Under the pieces are notes generated by a model. The model saw nothing but the letters and a program-made list of their open reading frames with translations. It did not search any database and was not told where the DNA came from. Both the position numbers and the translations under genes were made by a program. This document shows, piece by piece, positions 5,884-54,587 of a DNA stretch of 64,000 nt (the stretch's first letter is position 1; each line of letters starts with the position of its first letter). The stretch covers positions 416,001-480,000 of the forward strand of contig CM000434.1 in NCBI GenBank assembly GCA_000165345.1, in the 5' to 3' direction.

Positions 5884-6088
5884 GCATTTGTTTTTTGTGA
5901 TACTGACTAACTTTGTTTATTCACTAGAAAAAAAATAAATTGTGGATAATCAACAAATTTTGTGCATTATATAAAGCACACTTTTCCATTTCAACATGCC
6001 AATTTTTAATTTCCTTTAAGACGCATGTTCTGAAGCTAACCAAACAATTTTATTATTCTATTTCATTATTTTTTTAGAATATAAAATT

Positions 6089-31443: not shown

Positions 31444-31644
31444 ATTATTAATTCTAAAATTCCATTTAGGTATTTGGTTATTCGGATGTTATATTAATTA
31501 ATACAAATAATAAACGAATTAAGAACTTATATATTTTAATTATCTTTACTTATTACTTAACATATTTATCCACTATACATTAGTTCGTCCTCCCATTCAT
31601 AATGCGCTAAGACATTTTATTATCGAAATTTTAGTTAAATAAAA

Positions 31645-32057
31645 ATGAAAAATAAAATAAAAGCTTTAGCGACGTCTAATTCCTCAATAGAAAACAATAA
31701 TAAAGTATTCAAACAATGCAGATTAATCGGGACAGTGCTTTTCGGGACTTTAGCAGGAATTTTGGGGTTTAAGGGATTTTCAGGTAAGTCATCTTATGAT
31801 TATTAATATTCCTATTAAACTTCTGTTTTAGGCATTATGTTCTATATTTACTCCTTAATAACTACTTTAATCATCATAGTACTGAAGATAAGAATTAATA
31901 AGTGCAATCACTATTTTGACACGTTTAATGAAGTATTAGGAATTGGTGATTACTTTCTAGTAAGTTCTCAGAAAATAAATATAAATAAATGACTAATTTT
32001 TAGAGTTTTATTCTTTTTTGGTCGATTTCATATTGTATTTGCCACATTTACTATTGA
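31645..32057 (+). CDS. EMC6: ER membrane protein complex subunit 6 (EMC6/TMEM93), 3 exons: 31645..31783, 31832..31959, 32004..32057; absent from the ORF track
   Basis: Spliced product MKNKIKALATSNSSIENNNKVFKQCRLIGTVLFGTLAGILGFKGFSGIMFYIYSLITTLIIIVLKIRINKCNHYFDTFNEVLGIGDYFLSFILFWSISYCICHIYY* (106 aa) aligns along its length with human EMC6 (...[82 protein letters not shown]). Introns of 48 and 44 nt, both GTAAGT...TTTTAG, phases 1 and 0. Confidence 0.7.
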
Positions 32058-32242
32058 CTTAGTTTATCAAGGCTCAAAAAGATGAATAGGCATTCTCAGC
32101 ATCTTTAGAAAAAAAATGGCGGAATAAATCTTATTTGATGGAAAGTAGGTCATTCAAGTAATAAATTTACAGAATTTAAATACCTGACAGTCTAATAAAT
32201 TAGATACATTTCATATTAGTACTGGTTAAATTGGCCACATAT

Positions 32243-32249
32243 GGCGGGA
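32243..32249 (+). promoter_or_regulatory. E2F-like GC box (ATGGCGGGAC) about 185 nt upstream of the RNR R1 ATG
   Basis: GGCGGGA in an otherwise AT-rich spacer. E2F-type GGCGGGAAA/TTTGGCGC boxes are the established dominant upstream motif class of DNA-replication genes in Cryptosporidium-like apicomplexans. Position and target gene (S-phase RNR) fit. Confidence 0.4.
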
Positions 32250-32270
32250 CCCCACATGGAAAGCTAATCT

Positions 32271-32281
32271 ATTCCCCACTT
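32271..32281 (+). promoter_or_regulatory. ATTCCCCACTT element upstream of RNR R1 (149 nt before the ATG); member of a recurring TCCCCAC(T) promoter motif
   Basis: Same core in sense orientation at 20705..20715 (ACTCCCCACTT, 144 nt upstream of the kinesin ATG at 20859), 26696..26704 (minus-strand ATTCCCCAC, 158 nt upstream of the kinesin ATG at 26538) and 54367..54377 (CGTCCCCACTT, 211 nt upstream of the METTL16 ATG). A second CCCCAC lies at 32251..32256. Each copy sits 10-25 nt from a GC box (GGCGGGA; poly-C/CGC at 20683..20696; ACCGCG at 26673..26678; CGTCGCGG at 54400..54407). Confidence 0.35.
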
Positions 32282-32429
32282 AATTGTGTGGAAATGTGCT
32301 CGTAACGCCCCACCGAAGTGAATGGAAAATTTGTTTTAGTATTTTTTGTCGCATGCTCGAACACTAAATAAGGTTAAAACAACTAATTCGTAATATTAAT
32401 TGGGTCTTAAATTCCAATAATCATAAATA

Positions 32430-34841
32430 ATGTATGTGGTGAACAGAAAGGGTGAAGAGGAGCCTGTATCATTTGACCAGATTCTTAGCAGAATCACTAA
32501 ATTATCATATGGACTTCATCCACTTGTTGACCCAGCGAGGGTTACTCAAGCAGTGATAAATGGTCTATATAGTGGAATCAAAACATCTGAATTGGACGAA
32601 CTTGCTTCGCAAACTTGTGCATATATGGCAGCTACCCACAATGATTTCTCTAAACTCGCTGCTCGGATATCGACTTCTAATCTACACAAAAATACTTCTT
32701 CTGATATTGGTGATGTTGCATCGCAACTATATAATTTTAAAGACAATCAAGGTTGCCCTGCTCCTTTAATTTCAAAACCTGTTTATGATTTTATCATGGA
32801 AAATAGAGAAAGAATTAATTCAAAAATTGATTTTTCAAAGGATTTTGAATACGATTATTTTGCCTTCAAAACTCTAGAAAGATCCTATCTTCTTAAAATT
32901 GACAACAAAGTTGTGGAAAGACCACAACATCTTCTGATGCGGGTCTCTTGTGGTATTCATTGTGGTGATATTGAAGCTGCACTTGAAACATATGAGTTGT
33001 TATCGCAAAAATATTTTACTCATGCAACACCCACACTCTTTAATTCAGGCACTCCACGACCTCAAATGTCATCTTGTTTTTTACTCAGGATTCCAGAAGA
33101 TTCAATAAACGGTATCTTTGACACACTAACTAAATGCGCAAACATTAGTAAGACTGCGGGTGGTCTTGGGGTGGCAGTGAGTAATATTAGAGGAACTGGT
33201 TCATATATTCGAGGAACAAATGGGAGATCTAATGGATTAATTCCGATGCTGCGCGTTTATAATGACACTGCTAGGTATATTGATCAAGGTGGAGGGAAGC
33301 GTAAAGGTGCCATTGCAATTTATTTGGAGCCGTGGCACGTTGATGTTGTAGAGTTTATTGAAATCAGGAAGAATCACGGAAAGGAAGAGATGAGATGTCG
33401 CGATCTCTTTCCTGCCCTTTGGGTTCCTGATCTGTTCATGGAAAGAGTTGAGAAGGATCAAGATTGGACTCTAATGTGCCCAGATGAATGCAGGGGATTG
33501 CAAGATGTTTGGGGCGATGATTTTAAGAAGCTATATGAAGAGTATGAGAAACAAGGCCGTGGAAGGAAAACGATGAAAGCGCAGAAACTTTGGTTCTTAA
33601 TCTTACAGGCTCAAATTGAGACGGGGACACCATTTATTTGTTATAAAGATGCTGCAAATAGCAAAAGTAACCAGAAAAATTTGGGAACTATTGTTTCAAG
33701 TAACTTATGCACAGAAATCATAGAATACACTAGCACGGACGAAGTTGCCGTCTGTAATCTGGCGTCTATTGGCCTTCCAAAATTCGTTGATAAAAATAAC
33801 AAGACGTTTGATTTTGATAAGTTAAAAGAAGTTACGAAGGTGATTACGAGGAATTTGAATAAATTGATTGACGTTGGATATTATTCTCTCAAAGAGTGTA
33901 AAAAATCGAATTTAAGACATCGTCCATTGGGGATTGGCATTCAAGGGCTCGCAGACTGTTTTATGATGCTTCGTATGCCGTACGAGTCTGAGGGAGCTAA
34001 GAAGTTAAATAAACAAATTTTTGAAGTTATCTATTATGCAGCTCTCGACGCTAGCTGTGAGCTTGCAGAAAAATACGGGCCATACGAAACATATTCCGGT
34101 TCGCCTGCGAGTAAGGGTATTTTACAATTTGATATGTGGGGAGTTACACCAGACTCTGGACTTTGTGATTGGGATTTGCTTAAAGATAGGATTTCCAAAC
34201 ATGGTATTCGTAATTCTCTATTAATATCTCCAATGCCAACAGCATCCACTTCGCAAATTTTAGGTAACAATGAGAGTTTTGAGCCATTTACCTCGAACAT
34301 TTATCATCGTAGAGTACTATCTGGTGAGTTCTTTGTAGTAAATCCGCATTTGCTAAATGATTTACTAGAGCTTGGGTTATGGGATGATAGGCTTAAGCAG
34401 AATATTATTGCAAATAATGGCAGTATTCAAAATATACTTACAATTCCGGAAGATATACGCGAGCTTTATAAGACTGTATGGGAAATTAAGCAAAAGACAG
34501 TAATTGATATGGCTGCAGATAGGGGTCCATATGTTTGTCAATCGCAATCTTTGAACATTCATATGGAAAATGCTAACTTTGCAAAGTTATCATCTATGCA
34601 TTTTTATGGTTGGAAAAAAGGTCTAAAAACAGGCATTTATTATTTAAGGACCCAAAGCGCGACACGCCCCATACAATTTACAGTAGATCAACAACTCCTG
34701 AAATCGGAAACTAAAGAAAAGGATTCACTGGAGACTAACAAACGACAAGCACTCGAACCAGAGGCACAAAAGCTCATCGCTTGCCCATTAAGACCGACAA
34801 ATATGAAGGATGATGAAGAATGTATGATGTGTTCTGGTTAA
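32430..34841 (+). CDS. Ribonucleoside-diphosphate reductase large subunit (RNR R1)
   Basis: 803 aa. N-terminal ATP-cone ([23 protein letters not shown]), catalytic-site NLCTEI and active-site Cys/Glu context ([12 protein letters not shown]), [12 protein letters not shown], and the C-terminal redox-shuttle CxxC tail (ECMMCSG*). Textbook class Ia R1. Confidence 0.95.
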
Positions 34842-35004
34842 ATAATAGGCTTCAGAGTTCATGGTTTTTAATCAAGTCTTTTAAAATATTTTTTATGCTT
34901 GGTTTTAAGTGTTAATTAGGTGATTCGGTAATTTATTCTTCCACACAGTACACACGCTTAGACCGCCAACTCAAATTGACATTTAAAATTTCTTATCCAC
35001 TGAA

Positions 35005-37434
35005 ATGAAATCTAGAATTATTCCCTCAAAGATTATCAAACTCGGCAAAAACCGAGTTTTTTGTAGGACTTTTCTAATTACTATTCTAATTTTTCTGATT
35101 TTTTTCTTTAAGCGAAGATTGGTGATCGATTTATTGTTGATTGTCGAACTTATATTAATTGACATTTTATTTTCAAAATTCCTAAAGAAAAAAAAGGCGA
35201 TTTACAGTTCTATAAGTTCTACAAATTTAAACTTGGAGAAAAGAAATTCTATTGAGCTTAAAAAATTATCTACTGATAGCTGTAATAACTCCCTTAAGCA
35301 ACAAAAAACTATTAAAAGCCTGAGCGATGACAGAAAATCACGAAAAATTGGGAGAAAAAAAAATAAGGGATATGGCTGGACTCTCACAATTATAGCCTCA
35401 TTAATATTGATATTTACGTCGTTTTATGAAAGCTTTATTGCTAACATTATTTATAAAGAATATTCTAATGAAAAGGAAATAACAAGCCTAATAGATCAAT
35501 ATTCGGAAGAAAGGAAGTATTATAGCAATGTTTTTAAATATAACCCTCCAATTAATTTACCTACTCTAGAATTTTCCAATTGGTTACTCACTAATTGGGT
35601 TTTTAGAACTATTTCAAATTTACCAATTTTATTTTCCGACTATTCAAATATTAAAAAAAAAGGAATTGAATATATCGAAACTGAATTTGATACGTTCATT
35701 AATTTGAAAAAAGGCTCAATATCGAATATAACTAATAATGAACTTGAAAATAGTAAGTTTGATGGGCAAGAAACAAATATTGATTTTGTTTCTGATTCAA
35801 GTGAATTCAATGAAAACGATAGAATAAGTATTGTAATTCCAGCTCATAACGAAGATGAATTTATTAGCAAAACAATAATCTTTACTATTGAGTCAACTCC
35901 AACTGAATTACTAAGAGAGATCATAATTGTTGATGATTTTAGTGAAAAACCAGTGTTTGAAATACTTGAAGAAGAACTTCCAGAAAATTATAAAAAATAT
36001 GTGAAAATAATTAGGTTAAAGAAATGTGAAGGTTTAATAAGATCAAAAATTATTGGTGCAGATGCTGCTTTAGGCCCTAACATATTTTTTTTAGATGGGC
36101 ATTGTAAACCAAAAAAGGGTTGGTCAGAAGCGCTAGTTAAATCAATTAGAGAAAATTACAAGAGAGTTGTATGCCCAATCGTCCAAAGTATTTCAAATAT
36201 TGATTGGAGTGATATAGGAACTGCTGGTGCGAAAATGATGATAGAATGGAACTTTGCATTCCATTGGTATGATGATGGATTACCAGAAATTCCAATAGCA
36301 TCTGGAGGAATATTAATGATTACAAAAAGATGGTGGGAAGAAAGTGGTAAATATGATCCAGGAATGCTTTATTGGGGTGGGGAAAATATTGAGCAAAGTT
36401 TTAGAGTATGGCTTTGCGGCGGAGAAATACATGTGGTAAGAAATTCTTTAGTTGGGCATATTTTTGAAAGAAATAATTCAAATAGAAGAAATCAAGATTT
36501 CCAATATAAAAAAATGTTAATTGATAATATGAATAGCAATCATCAAAGAACAGCATTTGTGTGGTTAAGCGAACAGTTTTATGAAACTTATTTCAAAAAT
36601 TATCATGTATTAGGTTATTTACCTATTAGTTATACTAAGGGCCTAAGCGAAAGACTTTCATTAAAACATATATTAAAGTGCAAACCTTTTGAATGGTATA
36701 TAGGAAAATTTAGACCGGCCTTTGAAAGGCAAGGCGAACTTTATTATAATTTCCACCACATTCAGCATGTAAAAAGCAAATTATGTCTCTCTATAGCAAA
36801 TAAACAGAATGATCGGATTGGAGTTGGAAAAGCTGAGATTGAAATTCCAATGACAGTGGTGCCAAACGATGTATCGAGATATAGCATTAAAACGACAACA
36901 GATTATGATATTTTAGCTTTAAAAACATGTAACTATCTTGATGAATCCCAAAAGTGGAGCTTTATCCTTGGAAATCGGATGTTATATAACTTCAAATCAA
37001 AGAAGTGCTTAGATAAAGCAAGTTCAGTTAATTTATTCAAAAAAATGAAGACAAAGGATTTTATATATTCTCCAAATAACAGCTCAGAATCTAATACTGA
37101 ACTAGAATTGCCTTTACTGTATGAGTGCGACTGGAATCTTGTAATGAGAGCAAGAAATTACAATCAATTTTGGGCATGGAAAGATATTGGCGATAAAAGT
37201 GGAAAAATCGTCAATTGGAGCGGCGATGAGCATAGATCAAATGTAACAGGGGGCGCAGAAGAATTCATAGTCCCAATAAACAAAGGAGTAGATAGCGAAA
37301 GTTACTGTTTGTATTCAAATACTGCTTTAGGTAGTTATGAAGAAACGAAAATGTTTTACAGTAATTGTAAAACAGAAAACAACTCTGAAGAAATTTCATT
37401 TAAGAAAATTTGGAGGCAAAATCTTTTTGTTTGA
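35005..37434 (+). CDS. UDP-GalNAc:polypeptide N-acetylgalactosaminyltransferase (GT27 pp-GalNAc-T) with C-terminal ricin-B lectin domain
   Basis: GT-A catalytic core: IIVDDFSEKP (DxD-like), FLDGHCKP (DxH), Gal/GalNAc-T motif YWGGENIEQSFRVWLCGGEIHVVRNSLVGHIF. C-terminal beta-trefoil with QxW-like repeats (QKWSF, QFWAWKD) and Cys pairs. Hydrophobic N-terminal anchor segments; true initiator may be downstream of 35005. Confidence 0.85.
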   Translation: MKSRIIPSKIIKLGKNRVFCRTFLITILIFLIFFFKRRLVIDLLLIVELILIDILFSKFLKKKKAIYSSISSTNLNLEKRNSIELKKLSTDSCNNSLKQQKTIKSLSDDRKSRKIGRKKNKGYGWTLTIIASLILIFTSFYESFIANIIYKEYSNEKEITSLIDQYSEERKYYSNVFKYNPPINLPTLEFSNWLLTNWVFRTISNLPILFSDYSNIKKKGIEYIETEFDTFINLKKGSISNITNNELENSKFDGQETNIDFVSDSSEFNENDRISIVIPAHNEDEFISKTIIFTIESTPTELLREIIIVDDFSEKPVFEILEEELPENYKKYVKIIRLKKCEGLIRSKIIGADAALGPNIFFLDGHCKPKKGWSEALVKSIRENYKRVVCPIVQSISNIDWSDIGTAGAKMMIEWNFAFHWYDDGLPEIPIASGGILMITKRWWEESGKYDPGMLYWGGENIEQSFRVWLCGGEIHVVRNSLVGHIFERNNSNRRNQDFQYKKMLIDNMNSNHQRTAFVWLSEQFYETYFKNYHVLGYLPISYTKGLSERLSLKHILKCKPFEWYIGKFRPAFERQGELYYNFHHIQHVKSKLCLSIANKQNDRIGVGKAEIEIPMTVVPNDVSRYSIKTTTDYDILALKTCNYLDESQKWSFILGNRMLYNFKSKKCLDKASSVNLFKKMKTKDFIYSPNNSSESNTELELPLLYECDWNLVMRARNYNQFWAWKDIGDKSGKIVNWSGDEHRSNVTGGAEEFIVPINKGVDSESYCLYSNTALGSYEETKMFYSNCKTENNSEEISFKKIWRQNLFV

Positions 37435-38166
37435 AAAATGGAGCTGCATTTTATTTTGAAAAAGTTCAGAAAAATACTCAACTATGTGTTTATACAAAGT
37501 ATTACGTATTAAAGATAGTGATTAAATAAAGTGAATCCCGTAATAATACATATTACTTTATTGCAGCCTGTGATATAAAATGCGAAGTTCTATTATATTT
37601 TCAACACTGCTTTCAAGCTGCTATCCCACACATAAGGAATGCCAATAAAAATTATGGAAACTTTGTTTTCTTTACTTAAATATCAAAACATTCGAAATCC
37701 CGTGATTTAAAGTTGCAGATTTATTTGATTGAATTAAATCAAAACATGCGCACACAAAATTAAATTGTCATTTTGGGTATAATTTTTTTTTTGTAAGAAA
37801 TTTATCAATACAGAGTTGTAACAATTCTAACATGTTTTTGAGTATATTCGGTTTGCAAGTAAATAGTTTGAATTATTTTTACAAGTATTTAGCTATCATT
37901 GTTATCTTGTTCACAAAATATTGTAGCTTATAATATTAAGAAACTCTCTAATCGAGCAACTAATTAAAAAAGGAAAAATAACATACAATAAGAAATATAA
38001 TTAATTTCGGCGATTTTAATGTTTGTACTGCCTATATTTAGAGCTTTTTGTAAAGCTCATTGGAATTAAAATGAGCCAATTTGTTCTTATACAAATTCAA
38101 TTTCTAATTAATATATTTTACAATTGCATTAGGAGTTAGAAACAAAAATCAGTTTTTGAATCGTAG

Positions 38167-46139: not shown

Positions 46140-49100
46140 CTATTGCCATTGTATGGGTTGGGATTCATTAGCTGAGTTGATTTTACTATTATCAATTTCC
46201 CAGGTTCTTCCTCTTCTAACTTGTTCTCCTTTTGAAAAGGTGATTTTGGATTTTCCTTCGATTTGTTTGTTTCCTTCAGGATTTTTTCTTGCAATAAGTG
46301 CAATAGGATCAATTACTTGGTATAATTCTTTTGACCTTGTTGAGTTTAAGTCAAAAAACTGTACAGAGGTTTTCACTGGAATGAACCAAGGAAAGCTATT
46401 CTCTATTGTAATCATTGATTCTGTAGTTCGTATTCCAAAAAGTGATTTAATGCAAAATGATTCATCGCATATGTATTCACATTTATCGATTTTTATAGAA
46501 CCTCCATTTTCGGAAATAAAAAGTGGAATATTGGATTTTTCTGAAGATGTGTTTGTTGTATTTTTTCTTGAAATCAAATAATTAACTTGAAGATTTTCAA
46601 TATATATTTTTGATGAATCTTGCGACACTAAAGTTGTCGGATAGGAAATTACAGCGCTTTTAGCAATAAAAACACCACCATCGTCAGTAAACACATCTCC
46701 CTTAATAATTGTTTTATCACAATTCAGTATTGAAAATTCATCTACCATAATTCCACTATTTACTTCTAATAAATATCTTTCAGAAACATTCATGAGTGAA
46801 TTTCCTTGTAGTACAACTACTTTATTAATATTTACTTGATACTGCTGAATTGCATTATTTTCCCTTTTAATATTTATTATTGAACCGGATGTTAATATTA
46901 CGCTTTCGATTGAAATGCTTCCTTCGAAGACAAGCATTTCAGAAAATGTGTCAATTGTAAGATTGCCATTAATTAGAAGATTGATTGGAATTTTATTTCT
47001 AAACAGAAATAAATCCGTAAATTCATTTCCTTTTTCTCCATTTACCACTGTTAAAGACTTCGTCGACATACCCAAGCTCCCCTGATTAATATAAATTTGT
47101 TCTACTTCAAGATAGCTTTTCATAATTAAAACAACATTTCCATTTTTCACAATTAATTTCCCGTTAATTATAAATATGCCATTAGAAATGAAAAAACTCT
47201 TATAATCGTTAGATTTTACTTCAAAGCTTGGATTTACACTATTAATTATTAAATTACCTTTATTTATAAAAAAGCTAGATTTTCTTGTTGAAATAAATGA
47301 TTTCCCAACTTCCATACTTTCTCCTAATAGAAAACTCCCTTCAATTAAATCTACATGCTCATTTACCTTCAAACTACCATTAGCAATGAACATATTACTT
47401 GAATTTGATACAAGTATTGAACCAAGAATACAGTGTTGATATCTCTCACAATTATTATTTGAATTATTATTGCTATTTGAGTCATTTGAATGACCTAAAA
47501 TTAGGATTTCTGATCCGTCACTAATGACAGCATTTTCAAAAATACTAACTTTGCCCATGGACAAAAACTCAGATCCATCATTTATTTCAATTGAGCCTTG
47601 CACAAATACTTCTCCATAAATTGTAGCAGCTGATGCTGAAACAACTTGGAAAAATCCTGCCATTTTATCATTTATTTCTGTATATTGTGTACTGCTTATA
47701 CCAAAAATACTTGAAATATTATAGCTATTATGATAATATTCTATATTTTCAATGCTTTGGTTCAGTATTTTAAGAGAGTCAGCGTAAAATGTAGACGAAT
47801 CTCTTATTGATGCAATGTGTAGCATTACATTCCCACCTATTCGAATTTTAGAACCGGAATGTAACAATAAAATACTATTAATTTTTAATTCTCCCTTTTT
47901 CACGATAACAACTGATGATCTAATTAAAGATAGCCTGCTTGTAAAGATAGATGAATTCATCATATGAAGGCTTCCGGAATCCCTAATATGTATGCCTAGC
48001 CCATGCGTAGTGTTAGTTTTCAAATTACCGCAAGTACCAAAAACAAGGCCTGCATCAGAAATAACGACTTCGCCAGCACTAATATCGCCTCTTACCCATA
48101 ATTTACCACTATTTCCGACATATATCTTTCTCCCAGACCATAGAGAGCCCAAGTTCTGTTCTTTTGTTTCACTTTCATTGGATTTGGAACTATCTTGAAA
48201 TTGATTTTGAACAATATTATTATCAAATGTATTTAAACAACTGTTAGAGGCATGAAAAAGTTTAACTCTAGTGATAGAAAAAGGGTTCCAGCTATCTGAT
48301 CCACTATTATTCTGATATACATCAGAAAATAAATATAGAACTCCAATAAATAGATTAGATGACAGATCCACCTGTAAATCTGCGGTGTAGACATTTTTTC
48401 CAACAATCAATTTCCCAATGACTATTAAGTTAGAAAATGGAAGTATCATTGAGCCTCTTACAGTTAAACCTTTCCTAATAATACACCTTCTTTTTGAGTG
48501 TATTGGTTGAGTTTTACCAACTGACAAATTTTGAGCTTCAAGTGCATCAAACGAAGTCAGAGTATTTAGCTGACCATTTGCAACAATAAGATCTCCACAT
48601 ATTAAGACATCGCCATCAACAATAACTGAGACACAATTTGAATCTTCGAGAACCAAATCTTCATTTTCATAATTCAATATTATATCCCCGGAATCGGAAT
48701 AGGAATATTCGTTTGAATTATATGAATATGCAATTGGAGAAGGATCGAAAGCATTTTCACAATAACTTCTTTCTTTCATATTTTCAAAACCTTTCAATCT
48801 TTTTTCGTTGCAATATTGATTCTTTATACCAGAAGTAGTTGGGCAGCTAAAGCCAATATTTCTGATTTGATCTGCTAATAGATCATACATTTGATTTACT
48901 TGATTAATATAAACCTTTTCTTTTGTATCATTGATTAATTTACGCAATTTTTCATGCTCCTCATTGAATTTAATCTCATATTTATTCATTAATTTTCTTT
49001 TTACTAAATTCTGAATTTCATTTTGATGAATCCTTTCTGATACTGTTATCGGATTGCTAAATTCATAATCAGGAATCCATGGTAGAGAATTTGCAACAAT

Positions 49101-49175
49101 AATTAGAGATAGGCATTGGATCACAAATATAAAAATTACGCGTGGTAATAATATCAAGTTGTCCCTAAAATTCAT
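46140..49175 (-). CDS. Large secreted/membrane-anchored protein with beta-solenoid (parallel beta-helix-like) repeats (1011 aa)
   Basis: N-terminal signal/anchor MNFRDNLILLPRVIFIFVIQCLSLIIVANS. Most of the protein consists of roughly 20-25-residue degenerate repeats rich in G/N/S/I/V with the pattern NGxLxIxGxxxI / GSxxIxxS (e.g. NGSLKVNEHVDLIEGSFLLGESMEVGKSFIS...GNLIINSVNPSFEV...NGIFIINGKLIVKNGNVVLI...INGNLTIDTFSEMLVFEGSISIESVILTSGSIINI). This is typical of right-handed beta-helix/adhesin-like passengers. Confidence 0.6.
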   Translation of the reverse strand: MNFRDNLILLPRVIFIFVIQCLSLIIVANSLPWIPDYEFSNPITVSERIHQNEIQNLVKRKLMNKYEIKFNEEHEKLRKLINDTKEKVYINQVNQMYDLLADQIRNIGFSCPTTSGIKNQYCNEKRLKGFENMKERSYCENAFDPSPIAYSYNSNEYSYSDSGDIILNYENEDLVLEDSNCVSVIVDGDVLICGDLIVANGQLNTLTSFDALEAQNLSVGKTQPIHSKRRCIIRKGLTVRGSMILPFSNLIVIGKLIVGKNVYTADLQVDLSSNLFIGVLYLFSDVYQNNSGSDSWNPFSITRVKLFHASNSCLNTFDNNIVQNQFQDSSKSNESETKEQNLGSLWSGRKIYVGNSGKLWVRGDISAGEVVISDAGLVFGTCGNLKTNTTHGLGIHIRDSGSLHMMNSSIFTSRLSLIRSSVVIVKKGELKINSILLLHSGSKIRIGGNVMLHIASIRDSSTFYADSLKILNQSIENIEYYHNSYNISSIFGISSTQYTEINDKMAGFFQVVSASAATIYGEVFVQGSIEINDGSEFLSMGKVSIFENAVISDGSEILILGHSNDSNSNNNSNNNCERYQHCILGSILVSNSSNMFIANGSLKVNEHVDLIEGSFLLGESMEVGKSFISTRKSSFFINKGNLIINSVNPSFEVKSNDYKSFFISNGIFIINGKLIVKNGNVVLIMKSYLEVEQIYINQGSLGMSTKSLTVVNGEKGNEFTDLFLFRNKIPINLLINGNLTIDTFSEMLVFEGSISIESVILTSGSIINIKRENNAIQQYQVNINKVVVLQGNSLMNVSERYLLEVNSGIMVDEFSILNCDKTIIKGDVFTDDGGVFIAKSAVISYPTTLVSQDSSKIYIENLQVNYLISRKNTTNTSSEKSNIPLFISENGGSIKIDKCEYICDESFCIKSLFGIRTTESMITIENSFPWFIPVKTSVQFFDLNSTRSKELYQVIDPIALIARKNPEGNKQIEGKSKITFSKGEQVRRGRTWEIDNSKINSANESQPIQWQ

Positions 49176-49236
49176 AAAGTTTTGTTTAATTTTTTTTTCG
49201 AAGTTTCAATTATGTTGCAGGATTGCATTGTCGGCG

Positions 49237-49252
49237 CTTAATTGTGTGGAAA
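49237..49252 (+). repeat. 16-nt exact repeat CTTAATTGTGTGGAAA shared with 32279..32294 (RNR promoter); both copies follow a GC box
   Basis: Copy A 32279..32294 lies immediately downstream of ATTCCCCACTT in the RNR promoter. Copy B 49237..49252 follows GTCGGCGC about 60 nt upstream of the minus-strand beta-solenoid gene (start 49175) and just past the stop of the 1676-aa gene. An exact 16-mer with G/C content recurring in two promoters of a 64-kb AT-rich window is unlikely by chance. Confidence 0.4.
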
Positions 49253-49282
49253 GAAAAAGAATAAAATGATTAATTATAATTA

Positions 49283-54313: not shown

Positions 54314-54587
54314 TTTGATTCCTAAGTTATATAATTGATTTTTATTGCTGAACTTTGTAACTATTTCGTCCCCACTTAAGAAAAAAAATTGTTATACAAC
54401 GTCGCGGCATCATGAACTTTTATAATTGCGATGGATTATTTACCATTTGACACCTACAGTGTGAATAACCAAATACTGTTTATAATACAAAGAGTTTTTA
54501 AAGATAATGTATTTTTACTGTTTATTTATATTGCTATCTTCTTATCAACAACTATTGTCACAATTTTTATTTTAAGAATACTTTTAA

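Follow-up and report, generated by a model that had tools for sequence, protein, structure and literature searches.

Several families of short motif have been described upstream of Cryptosporidium parvum genes, among them E2F (DTTGSCGCCH, TTTGGCGGGAAV), the G-box (G.GGGG, with motif 2 written DTGTGGGG), AP2_1 (GCATGC) and AP2_2 (GCACAC/CACACA), together with A[T/A]G[T/A]GGA.A, a motif without assignment that precedes class II COWP (oocyst-wall protein) genes (PMC3734150). In protein-binding microarrays performed in vitro, four C. parvum AP2 domains (cgd8_3130, cgd4_600, cgd5_2570 and cgd6_2600) bind CACACA and three bind the G-box (PMC4117751); cgd8_810 and cgd2_2990 are G-box binders. The earliest motif study placed ribonucleotide reductase (RNR) together with dCMP deaminase and DHFR-TS and described the DNA-replication motif aatgTGGGGaa (Mullapudi 2007, PMC1779779), and its supplement gives atgTGGGG, gTGctcGT and CCCCACcg among the MEME motifs of the RDPR/dCMPD/DHFR-TS subset. 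C. parvum polycistronic transcripts, with E2F motifs in the short spacers between their ORFs, have been described in a preprint (10.1101/2025.01.17.633476).

Here we compare with these systems a 16-nt string, CTTAATTGTGTGGAAA, which occurs twice in the window, the whole 64-kb stretch of C. parvum-like DNA that was analyzed (30% G+C, with long ORFs that are densely packed and mostly without introns). An earlier note on this DNA had reported two exact copies, each directly preceded by a GC box or CCCCAC element and oppositely oriented with respect to the nearest gene start, and our analysis bears out all of these observations. Both matches are present and both read on the plus strand (Table 1); the first base of copy 1 is the last C of the G-box TTCCCCAC, the first base of copy 2 is the last C of the GC box GTCGGCGC, and the nearest ATGs lie on the plus strand for RNR and on the minus strand for a gene encoding a protein of 1011 aa. 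Copy 1 is situated 136-151 nt 5' of the ATG of the RNR large subunit (RNR R1) at 32430, and copy 2 is situated 62-77 nt 5' of the ATG of the 1011-aa gene and only 30 nt past the stop codon (49283-85) of the preceding minus-strand gene, which encodes 1676 aa. No further copy with up to two mismatches occurs in the 64-kb window, and the 40-nt flanks of the two copies agree at 11/40 and 7/40 bases, which is the level of random sequence.

The identities of the two downstream genes were examined by domain search and structure prediction. The Pfam matches listed in Table 1 confirm the RNR label that the first gene had been given, and the gene carries the identifier cgd6_1950 (PMC1779779); gene descriptions for cgd6_1960, cgd6_1970 and cgd6_2000 in the PMC3734150 supplement agree with the neighboring ORFs. 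Orthologues of the 1011-aa protein occur in Cryptosporidium only, with identity declining from 92% in C. meleagridis to 38% in C. muris and C. serpentis, and the neighboring 2333-aa protein is 96% identical to its C. hominis counterpart. Together with the RNR identifier, these values assign the window to chromosome 6 of C. parvum or of a very near relative. The 1011-aa gene is probably cgd6_1990. The 1011-aa protein has a hydrophobic N-terminus and returned no match in a Pfam search. Its AlphaFold2 model, built with 11 orthologues, has a mean pLDDT of 64 that rises to ~90 across much of residues 340-930, a region of many short beta strands. A Foldseek search of this model against the PDB gave nothing significant (best E = 0.096), and the weak top matches were nearly all right-handed beta-helices (autotransporter passenger domains, tailspikes and polysaccharide lyases). 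The designation "secreted beta-solenoid" proposed for this protein is plausible, with weak support.

Two further genes bear on how much of the window is regulatory. A small intron-containing EMC6 gene lies at ~31645-32052, between an ORC3-like gene and RNR, where the ORF listing misses it; its exon blocks are conserved, with a splice donor near 31784. EMC6 is annotated in C. meleagridis and C. xiaoi, and the C. ubiquitum annotation fuses it with RNR. Because EMC6 fills this interval, the RNR promoter is only ~370 bp long. The stretch at 37435-38166 has no ORF of at least 150 aa and probably contains a YjeF_N-family gene, which is annotated in C. ubiquitum and C. serpentis; the CACACA sites at 37627 and 37751, counted here as non-coding, fall inside the stretch and may therefore be coding or intronic.

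To place the string pair against chance, we counted exact repeats of at least 16 nt. The whole window holds 13 independent repeats of this kind, compared with 10-11 expected from Markov-1 and Markov-3 simulations. In the non-coding DNA (8.1 kb, defined by a coding mask that includes the open frame at 60985-63999 running off the 3' end, another at the 5' end, and EMC6), the 16-mer is the only repeat pair of at least 16 nt, with 0.29-0.32 pairs expected and a P(>=1) of ~0.25. The probability of the non-coding pair decreases to ~0.01 when words are required to contain at least five G/C, a filter that is post hoc and drops AT-only words, and a smaller expectation of 0.16 is no fair test because it treats the word as chosen beforehand. 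For the exact 16-mer in the 9.1-Mb genome, our own calculation from base composition gives a chance expectation of ~0.01 copies. On these figures the evidence that the pair exceeds chance is equivocal. Given the 8-9-nt core that the two sites share (see below), it is improbable that the remaining 7-8 bases should also match exactly, and hence some extended constraint beyond the core may have acted in the parvum-to-ubiquitum clade.

Two shorter words also recur in the non-coding DNA of the window. The 8-mer TTGCAAGT/ACTTGCAA has five copies (11677, 17491, 20020, 37853 and 56226), none of which is in masked coding sequence (p = 3e-5, uncorrected for multiple tests), and may be another upstream motif. 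The 14-mer GAATAACCAAATAC is the second G/C-containing non-coding repeat. One copy, at 31470-31483 (minus strand), is in the divergent ORC3-like/EMC6 promoter region, and the other, at 54463-54476 (plus strand), is in the divergent promoter region of the methyltransferase and 1676-aa genes, where it (54464) falls inside a conserved block.

Conservation was assessed across the syntenic region in C. hominis, C. meleagridis, chipmunk genotype I, C. ubiquitum, C. canis and C. ryanae; for RNR we added the locus from C. felis, C. serpentis and C. xiaoi, and for the 1011-aa gene that from C. felis and C. muris. Alignments were made separately for each intergenic region. The exact 16-mer is limited to C. 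parvum, C. hominis and C. meleagridis, where it occupies both orthologous places; ~27 kb of synteny in six other species yielded no extra copies, and the remaining four of these syntenic loci gave no match. Among intergenic 16-nt windows of the aligned regions, copy 1 ranks at the 82nd percentile of conservation and copy 2 at the 61st. Site 1 keeps GTGGAAA and site 2 keeps ACACAATTA, so the two copies are constrained in different sub-parts. Nor are the same positions constrained in both copies across species, since site 1 contains a variable spacer and site 2 loses GG in chipmunk genotype I; in this genotype and in C. ubiquitum the two sites diverge independently and at different positions.

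Table 1. Promoter elements, string copies and adjacent genes, with positions in the window.
Feature	Position	Strand	Remarks
E2F-like TGGCGGGA fused to G-box CCCCAC(AT); with CCCCACAT, 32242-32257	32242..32255	+	Ranks with the best-conserved 16-nt intergenic windows
G-box CCCCAC (GTGGGG on the other strand)	32274..32279	+	Abuts copy 1; conserved in all intestinal species
16-mer copy 1 (CTTAATTGTGTGGAAA), RNR R1 promoter	32279..32294	+	Exact match
TGTGGAAA, (T/A)GTGGAAA element	32287..32294	+	Only deeply conserved part of copy 1
GTGCTCGT block, then third G-box CGCCCCAC (32306-32313)	32296..32313	+	Conserved from C. parvum to C. felis
GCATGC, AP2_1-type site	32351..32356	+	Conserved in C. parvum, C. 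hominis, C. meleagridis and chipmunk genotype I
RNR large subunit (RNR R1) gene	32430..34841	+	Pfam ATP-cone, Ribonuc_red_lgN, Ribonuc_red_lgC, E = 8e-219
Third core promoter, TTCCACACA-GT-ACACACGC-TTA-GACCGCCAA	34939..34969	+	5' of GalNAc-transferase-like gene
GalNAc-transferase-like glycosyltransferase gene (cgd6_1960)	35005-37434	+	
1011-aa protein gene, downstream of copy 2	46140..49175	-	ATG at 49175
TTGCAGGATTGCAT	49215..49228	+	Most conserved element in the 107-bp spacer, retained from C. parvum through C. canis
GC box GTCGGCGC, weakly E2F-like	49230..49237	+	Abuts copy 2; GC-rich island kept to C. canis (GGCGCC)
16-mer copy 2 (CTTAATTGTGTGGAAA), spacer 5' of 1011-aa gene	49237..49252	+	Exact match

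At the RNR locus, the proximal promoter (32116-32356) is a dense array of conserved elements that begins with TGGCGGAA at 32117. In the intestinal species the elements follow one order: GGCGG (E2F-like) with CCCCAC, ~20 nt, a second CCCCAC, a spacer, (T/A)GTGGAAA, GTGCTCGT and a last CCCCAC. Starting from C. parvum, most of them persist as far as C. felis or C. xiaoi, and in the gastric species C. serpentis only two CCCCAC are left. The E2F-like box matches the published form TTTGGCGGGAAV and its fused G-box matches motif 2 (PMC3734150), and the MEME motifs named above for the nucleotide-metabolism subset (PMC1779779) correspond to the same blocks that we find conserved here. The TTAATTG half of copy 1 is a spacer of 3 to 10 nt that also varies in sequence, reading ttaattg in C. 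parvum, ttaatag in chipmunk genotype I (where the position of copy 1 as a whole reads CTTAATAGTGTGGAAA), ttaatagtt in C. ubiquitum, ttaaac in C. canis, caactgaat in C. felis, tattat in C. xiaoi and cat in C. ryanae. The combination CCCCAC-N(3-10)-(T/A)GTGGAA occurs once per locus and only at the RNR promoter, 143-188 nt from the ATG, in 9/10 species, the exception being C. serpentis; TGTGGAAA and one G-box form an inverted CCAC...GTGG pair. CACACA at this site is not conserved past C. meleagridis and is lost in C. ubiquitum, C. canis, C. felis, C. xiaoi and C. ryanae.

A 107-bp spacer (49176-49282) that contains copy 2 separates two minus-strand genes, running from the stop of the 1676-aa gene to the start of the 1011-aa gene. 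On the plus strand the site reads CTTAATTGTGTAAAAG in chipmunk genotype I and CCTAATTGTGTGGGAAAA in C. ubiquitum, and nothing similar to the string is present at the locus in C. canis, C. felis, C. ryanae or C. muris. The only part of the site 2 string that is kept is ACACAATTA, as far as C. ubiquitum; CACACA is likewise kept to C. ubiquitum, with TACACA in chipmunk genotype I. The neighboring ATGCAATCCTGCAA persists to C. canis, as does the adjacent GC box. The element TTGCAGGATTGCAT is an imperfect direct repeat of TTGCA, and GGATTGCATT fits motif 23, DRMTTSCATB (PMC3734150). The minus strand of the spacer contains no A(A/G)TAAA poly(A) signal, as this signal is defined in the preprint 10.1101/2025.01.17.633476. 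With a GC box and without a poly(A) signal, the spacer resembles the inter-ORF spacers of C. parvum polycistronic transcripts, and by this analogy the report of such transcripts may be relevant to it.

The constrained parts of site 1 and site 2 overlap in TGTGTGGAA, which resembles known C. parvum motif classes and includes TGTGTG, the complement of CACACA, at 32285-32290 and 49243-49248. CACACA/TGTGTG is the most non-coding-enriched 6-mer of the window, with 9 of its 15 copies falling in the 12.7% that is non-coding (p = 2e-5), and at least five clear promoters carry it. CCACACA/TGTGTGG is the second most non-coding-enriched 7-mer (5/6), and all three copies of GTGTGGAA in the window are non-coding. 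GTGGAA alone displayed no non-coding enrichment (4/28), and neither did TGTGGA once the coding mask takes in 60985-63999, the 5' frame and EMC6.

The third copy of GTGTGGAA, at 34939-34947, is in the promoter of the GalNAc-transferase-like gene, where, in the direction of that gene, it reads TTCCACACA. The start of TTCCACACA is 66 nt from the ATG at this promoter versus 76 nt at site 2, the orientation is the same, and at both places TTCCACACA is followed by a GC box. Within 70 nt of its ATG, the glycosyltransferase promoter contains two CACACA-type sites and, on the opposite strand, an E2F-like TTGGCGGTC. This block is kept to C. canis, and C. felis retains TTCCAC-N9-CACACA. The glycosyltransferase site has only the 9-nt core in common with the 16-mer. 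In chipmunk genotype I the CC of TTCCACACA has been lost and ACACA kept, both at site 2 (TTTTACACA, locus ~5920-5950) and at the glycosyltransferase promoter (TTGCACACA, locus ~20240-20260), but TTTCCAC is still present at RNR, a pattern that gives a hint that different factors may read the two halves.

Of the described motif systems, AP2_2 (CACACA/GCACAC), an ApiAP2 motif of C. parvum and Plasmodium (PMC3734150; PMC4117751), is contained in the 16-mer as the complement TGTGTG, and the candidate sites show both the hexamer and its preference for non-coding DNA. Conservation of CACACA at orthologous positions is mixed, with the hexamer kept at site 2 and at the glycosyltransferase promoter and lost at RNR; past C. 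meleagridis the RNR site conserves GTGGAAA and not CACACA. A likeness to the G-box family is also apparent, as TGTGGAAA has TGTGG and the trailing AA in common with (A)TGTGGGGAA and lies among the three canonical G-boxes of a nucleotide-metabolism promoter. Because it is without the GGGG run, however, TGTGGAAA is no G-box by the published consensus: the 16-mer has GTGGAA in place of the core G[T/C/A]GGGG, and canonical G-boxes flank it at 32250, 32274 and 32308. Measured against the published consensus of the class II COWP motif (PMC3734150), the (T/A)GTGGAAA element at RNR fits 8/9 positions in all species, but the first position misfits and the published motif derives from another gene set. 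E2F/DP, the dominant C. parvum promoter motif, is represented by the GC boxes TGGCGGGA, TTGGCGGTC and CGGCGC, one in each of the three promoters that contain TTCCACACA and adjacent to it. The 16-mer itself, however, is no E2F site: it contains neither of the cores [A/T][C/G]GCGC[G/C][A/T] and TTTGGCGGGAA, and GCGC and GGCGG are confined to the adjacent boxes, of which the site-2 GC box is a weak match (6-7/8 by eye). Resemblances to a homeodomain-type TAATTG, a CSL-type (C/T)GTGGGAA and the SV40 core GTGGAAAG were dropped as unsupported.

With a probability of about 0.6, we conclude that the 16-mer is no functional or evolutionary unit and that it represents a clade-specific overlap of two independent compact promoters sharing a core of known type. 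Two independently evolving compact promoter regions, both built from the usual short motifs of Cryptosporidium (E2F-like GC boxes, G-box and GCATGC), would have come to overlap in sequence in the parvum/hominis/meleagridis clade. The RNR string would then consist of the last base of the G-box CCCCAC, the unconstrained AT-rich spacer TTAATTG and the deeply conserved (T/A)GTGGAAA, and the constrained part of the 1011-aa promoter, or inter-ORF spacer, would be (C)ACACAATTA beside the GC box. A common function is likely only for the core TGTGTGG(AA), or TTCCACACA on the other strand, which would act as an orientation-independent binding site for ApiAP2-type factors; candidate readers are the CACACA-binding domains and/or a G-box-like GTGG recognition, beside E2F/DP sites. 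Protein binding and a regulatory effect at the core are what we infer from sequence patterns. The other 7-8 identical bases are probably coincidental and would have arisen in one clade. The shared cis-module suggested in the earlier note accordingly persists as a short core, TGTGTGG(AA), that is non-coding-enriched and recurs in a third promoter, but not as a 16-nt unit, for which exact identity is confined to C. parvum, C. hominis and C. meleagridis.

A different account would treat the match as pure coincidence in AT-rich non-coding DNA, with copy 2 in neutral spacer or UTR and only the RNR copy overlapping a functional element. The agreement of the whole-window repeat count with expectation and the non-coding P of ~0.25 are what this account predicts, as are the 61st conservation percentile of copy 2, its absence outside the parvum-to-ubiquitum clade and its loss of GG in chipmunk genotype I. 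Coincidence alone nevertheless sits poorly with the strong non-coding enrichment of CACACA and CCACACA, with the third conserved TTCCACACA at a distance (66 versus 76 nt from the ATG) and orientation like those of copy 2, and with the fact that chipmunk genotype I and C. ubiquitum both retain ACACAATTA at site 2, and we regard it as unlikely. We are more doubtful still of an extended composite cis-module of ~13-16 nt (AATTGTGTGGAAA +/- CTT), acquired in the parvum-to-ubiquitum lineage and read by the same factor(s), which would couple RNR and 1011-aa expression. Although the P of ~0.01 under the filter for at least five G/C, the GC-rich box abutting both copies and the ~14-15/16 identity that the sites already had in the ancestor inferred for C. 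parvum and C. ubiquitum favor such a module, chipmunk genotype I and C. ubiquitum show independent changes at differing positions of the two copies, the 5' half is at site 1 a spacer whose length varies, and the third site has the 9-nt core only, with no other copy in 64 kb. A related and similarly doubtful proposal, held with very slightly more credence, is that (T/A)GTGGAAA, paired with the inverted G-box at ~150-190 nt from RNR in nine intestinal species, could be a so far unassigned cis-element with its own factor, which may have been recruited in the extended form AATTGTGTGGAAA to the promoter of the lineage-specific gene for a putative secreted beta-helix protein in the parvum lineage; if true, genes for DNA synthesis and for a secreted protein would share a regulon.

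The position of copy 2, 30 nt past a same-strand stop in a 107-nt spacer without A(A/G)TAAA on the minus strand, also suits an element acting at the RNA level (a signal in the 3'UTR or for polyadenylation, one between cistrons, or a segment of a small non-coding RNA), as does the occurrence of E2F motifs in the inter-ORF spacers of C. parvum polycistronic transcripts (10.1101/2025.01.17.633476). Relative to their flanking same-strand genes, however, the copies would be transcribed in opposite sense, Rfam returned 0 matches for the whole window at the gathering threshold, and the only stem is the 4-bp CCAC/GTGG at site 1, which makes an RNA element very improbable. The second suggestion of the earlier note, a fragment of a dispersed short repeat, draws, like a mobile-element remnant, on nothing except the exact identity of the two copies. 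With unrelated flanks and no other copy in the 64-kb window, the 16-mer is no dispersed repeat: its two copies have sharp edges, neither multiple copies with extended similarity in the window nor non-orthologous positions in the syntenic loci of the six other species were observed, these loci contain the orthologous copies alone, and among relatives each copy sits in an orthologous, alignable promoter context. We give this origin scarcely any credence. The overlap of two independent promoters around a shared core is the reading we retain.

The 16-mer itself gives no sign of a new repeat class or a new regulatory principle, and in this respect the finding is largely ordinary. Two useful by-products of the analysis are a ten-species, base-level footprint of the RNR R1 promoter (E2F box, three G-boxes, GTGGAAA, GTGCTCGT and GCATGC) and the recurrence of the TTCCACACA and GC box pairing in two neighboring promoters. 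Gene regulation in Cryptosporidium is poorly validated by experiment and its promoters are only ~100-400 bp long, which makes well-footprinted elements of use in reporter design and in the assignment of ApiAP2 and E2F targets.
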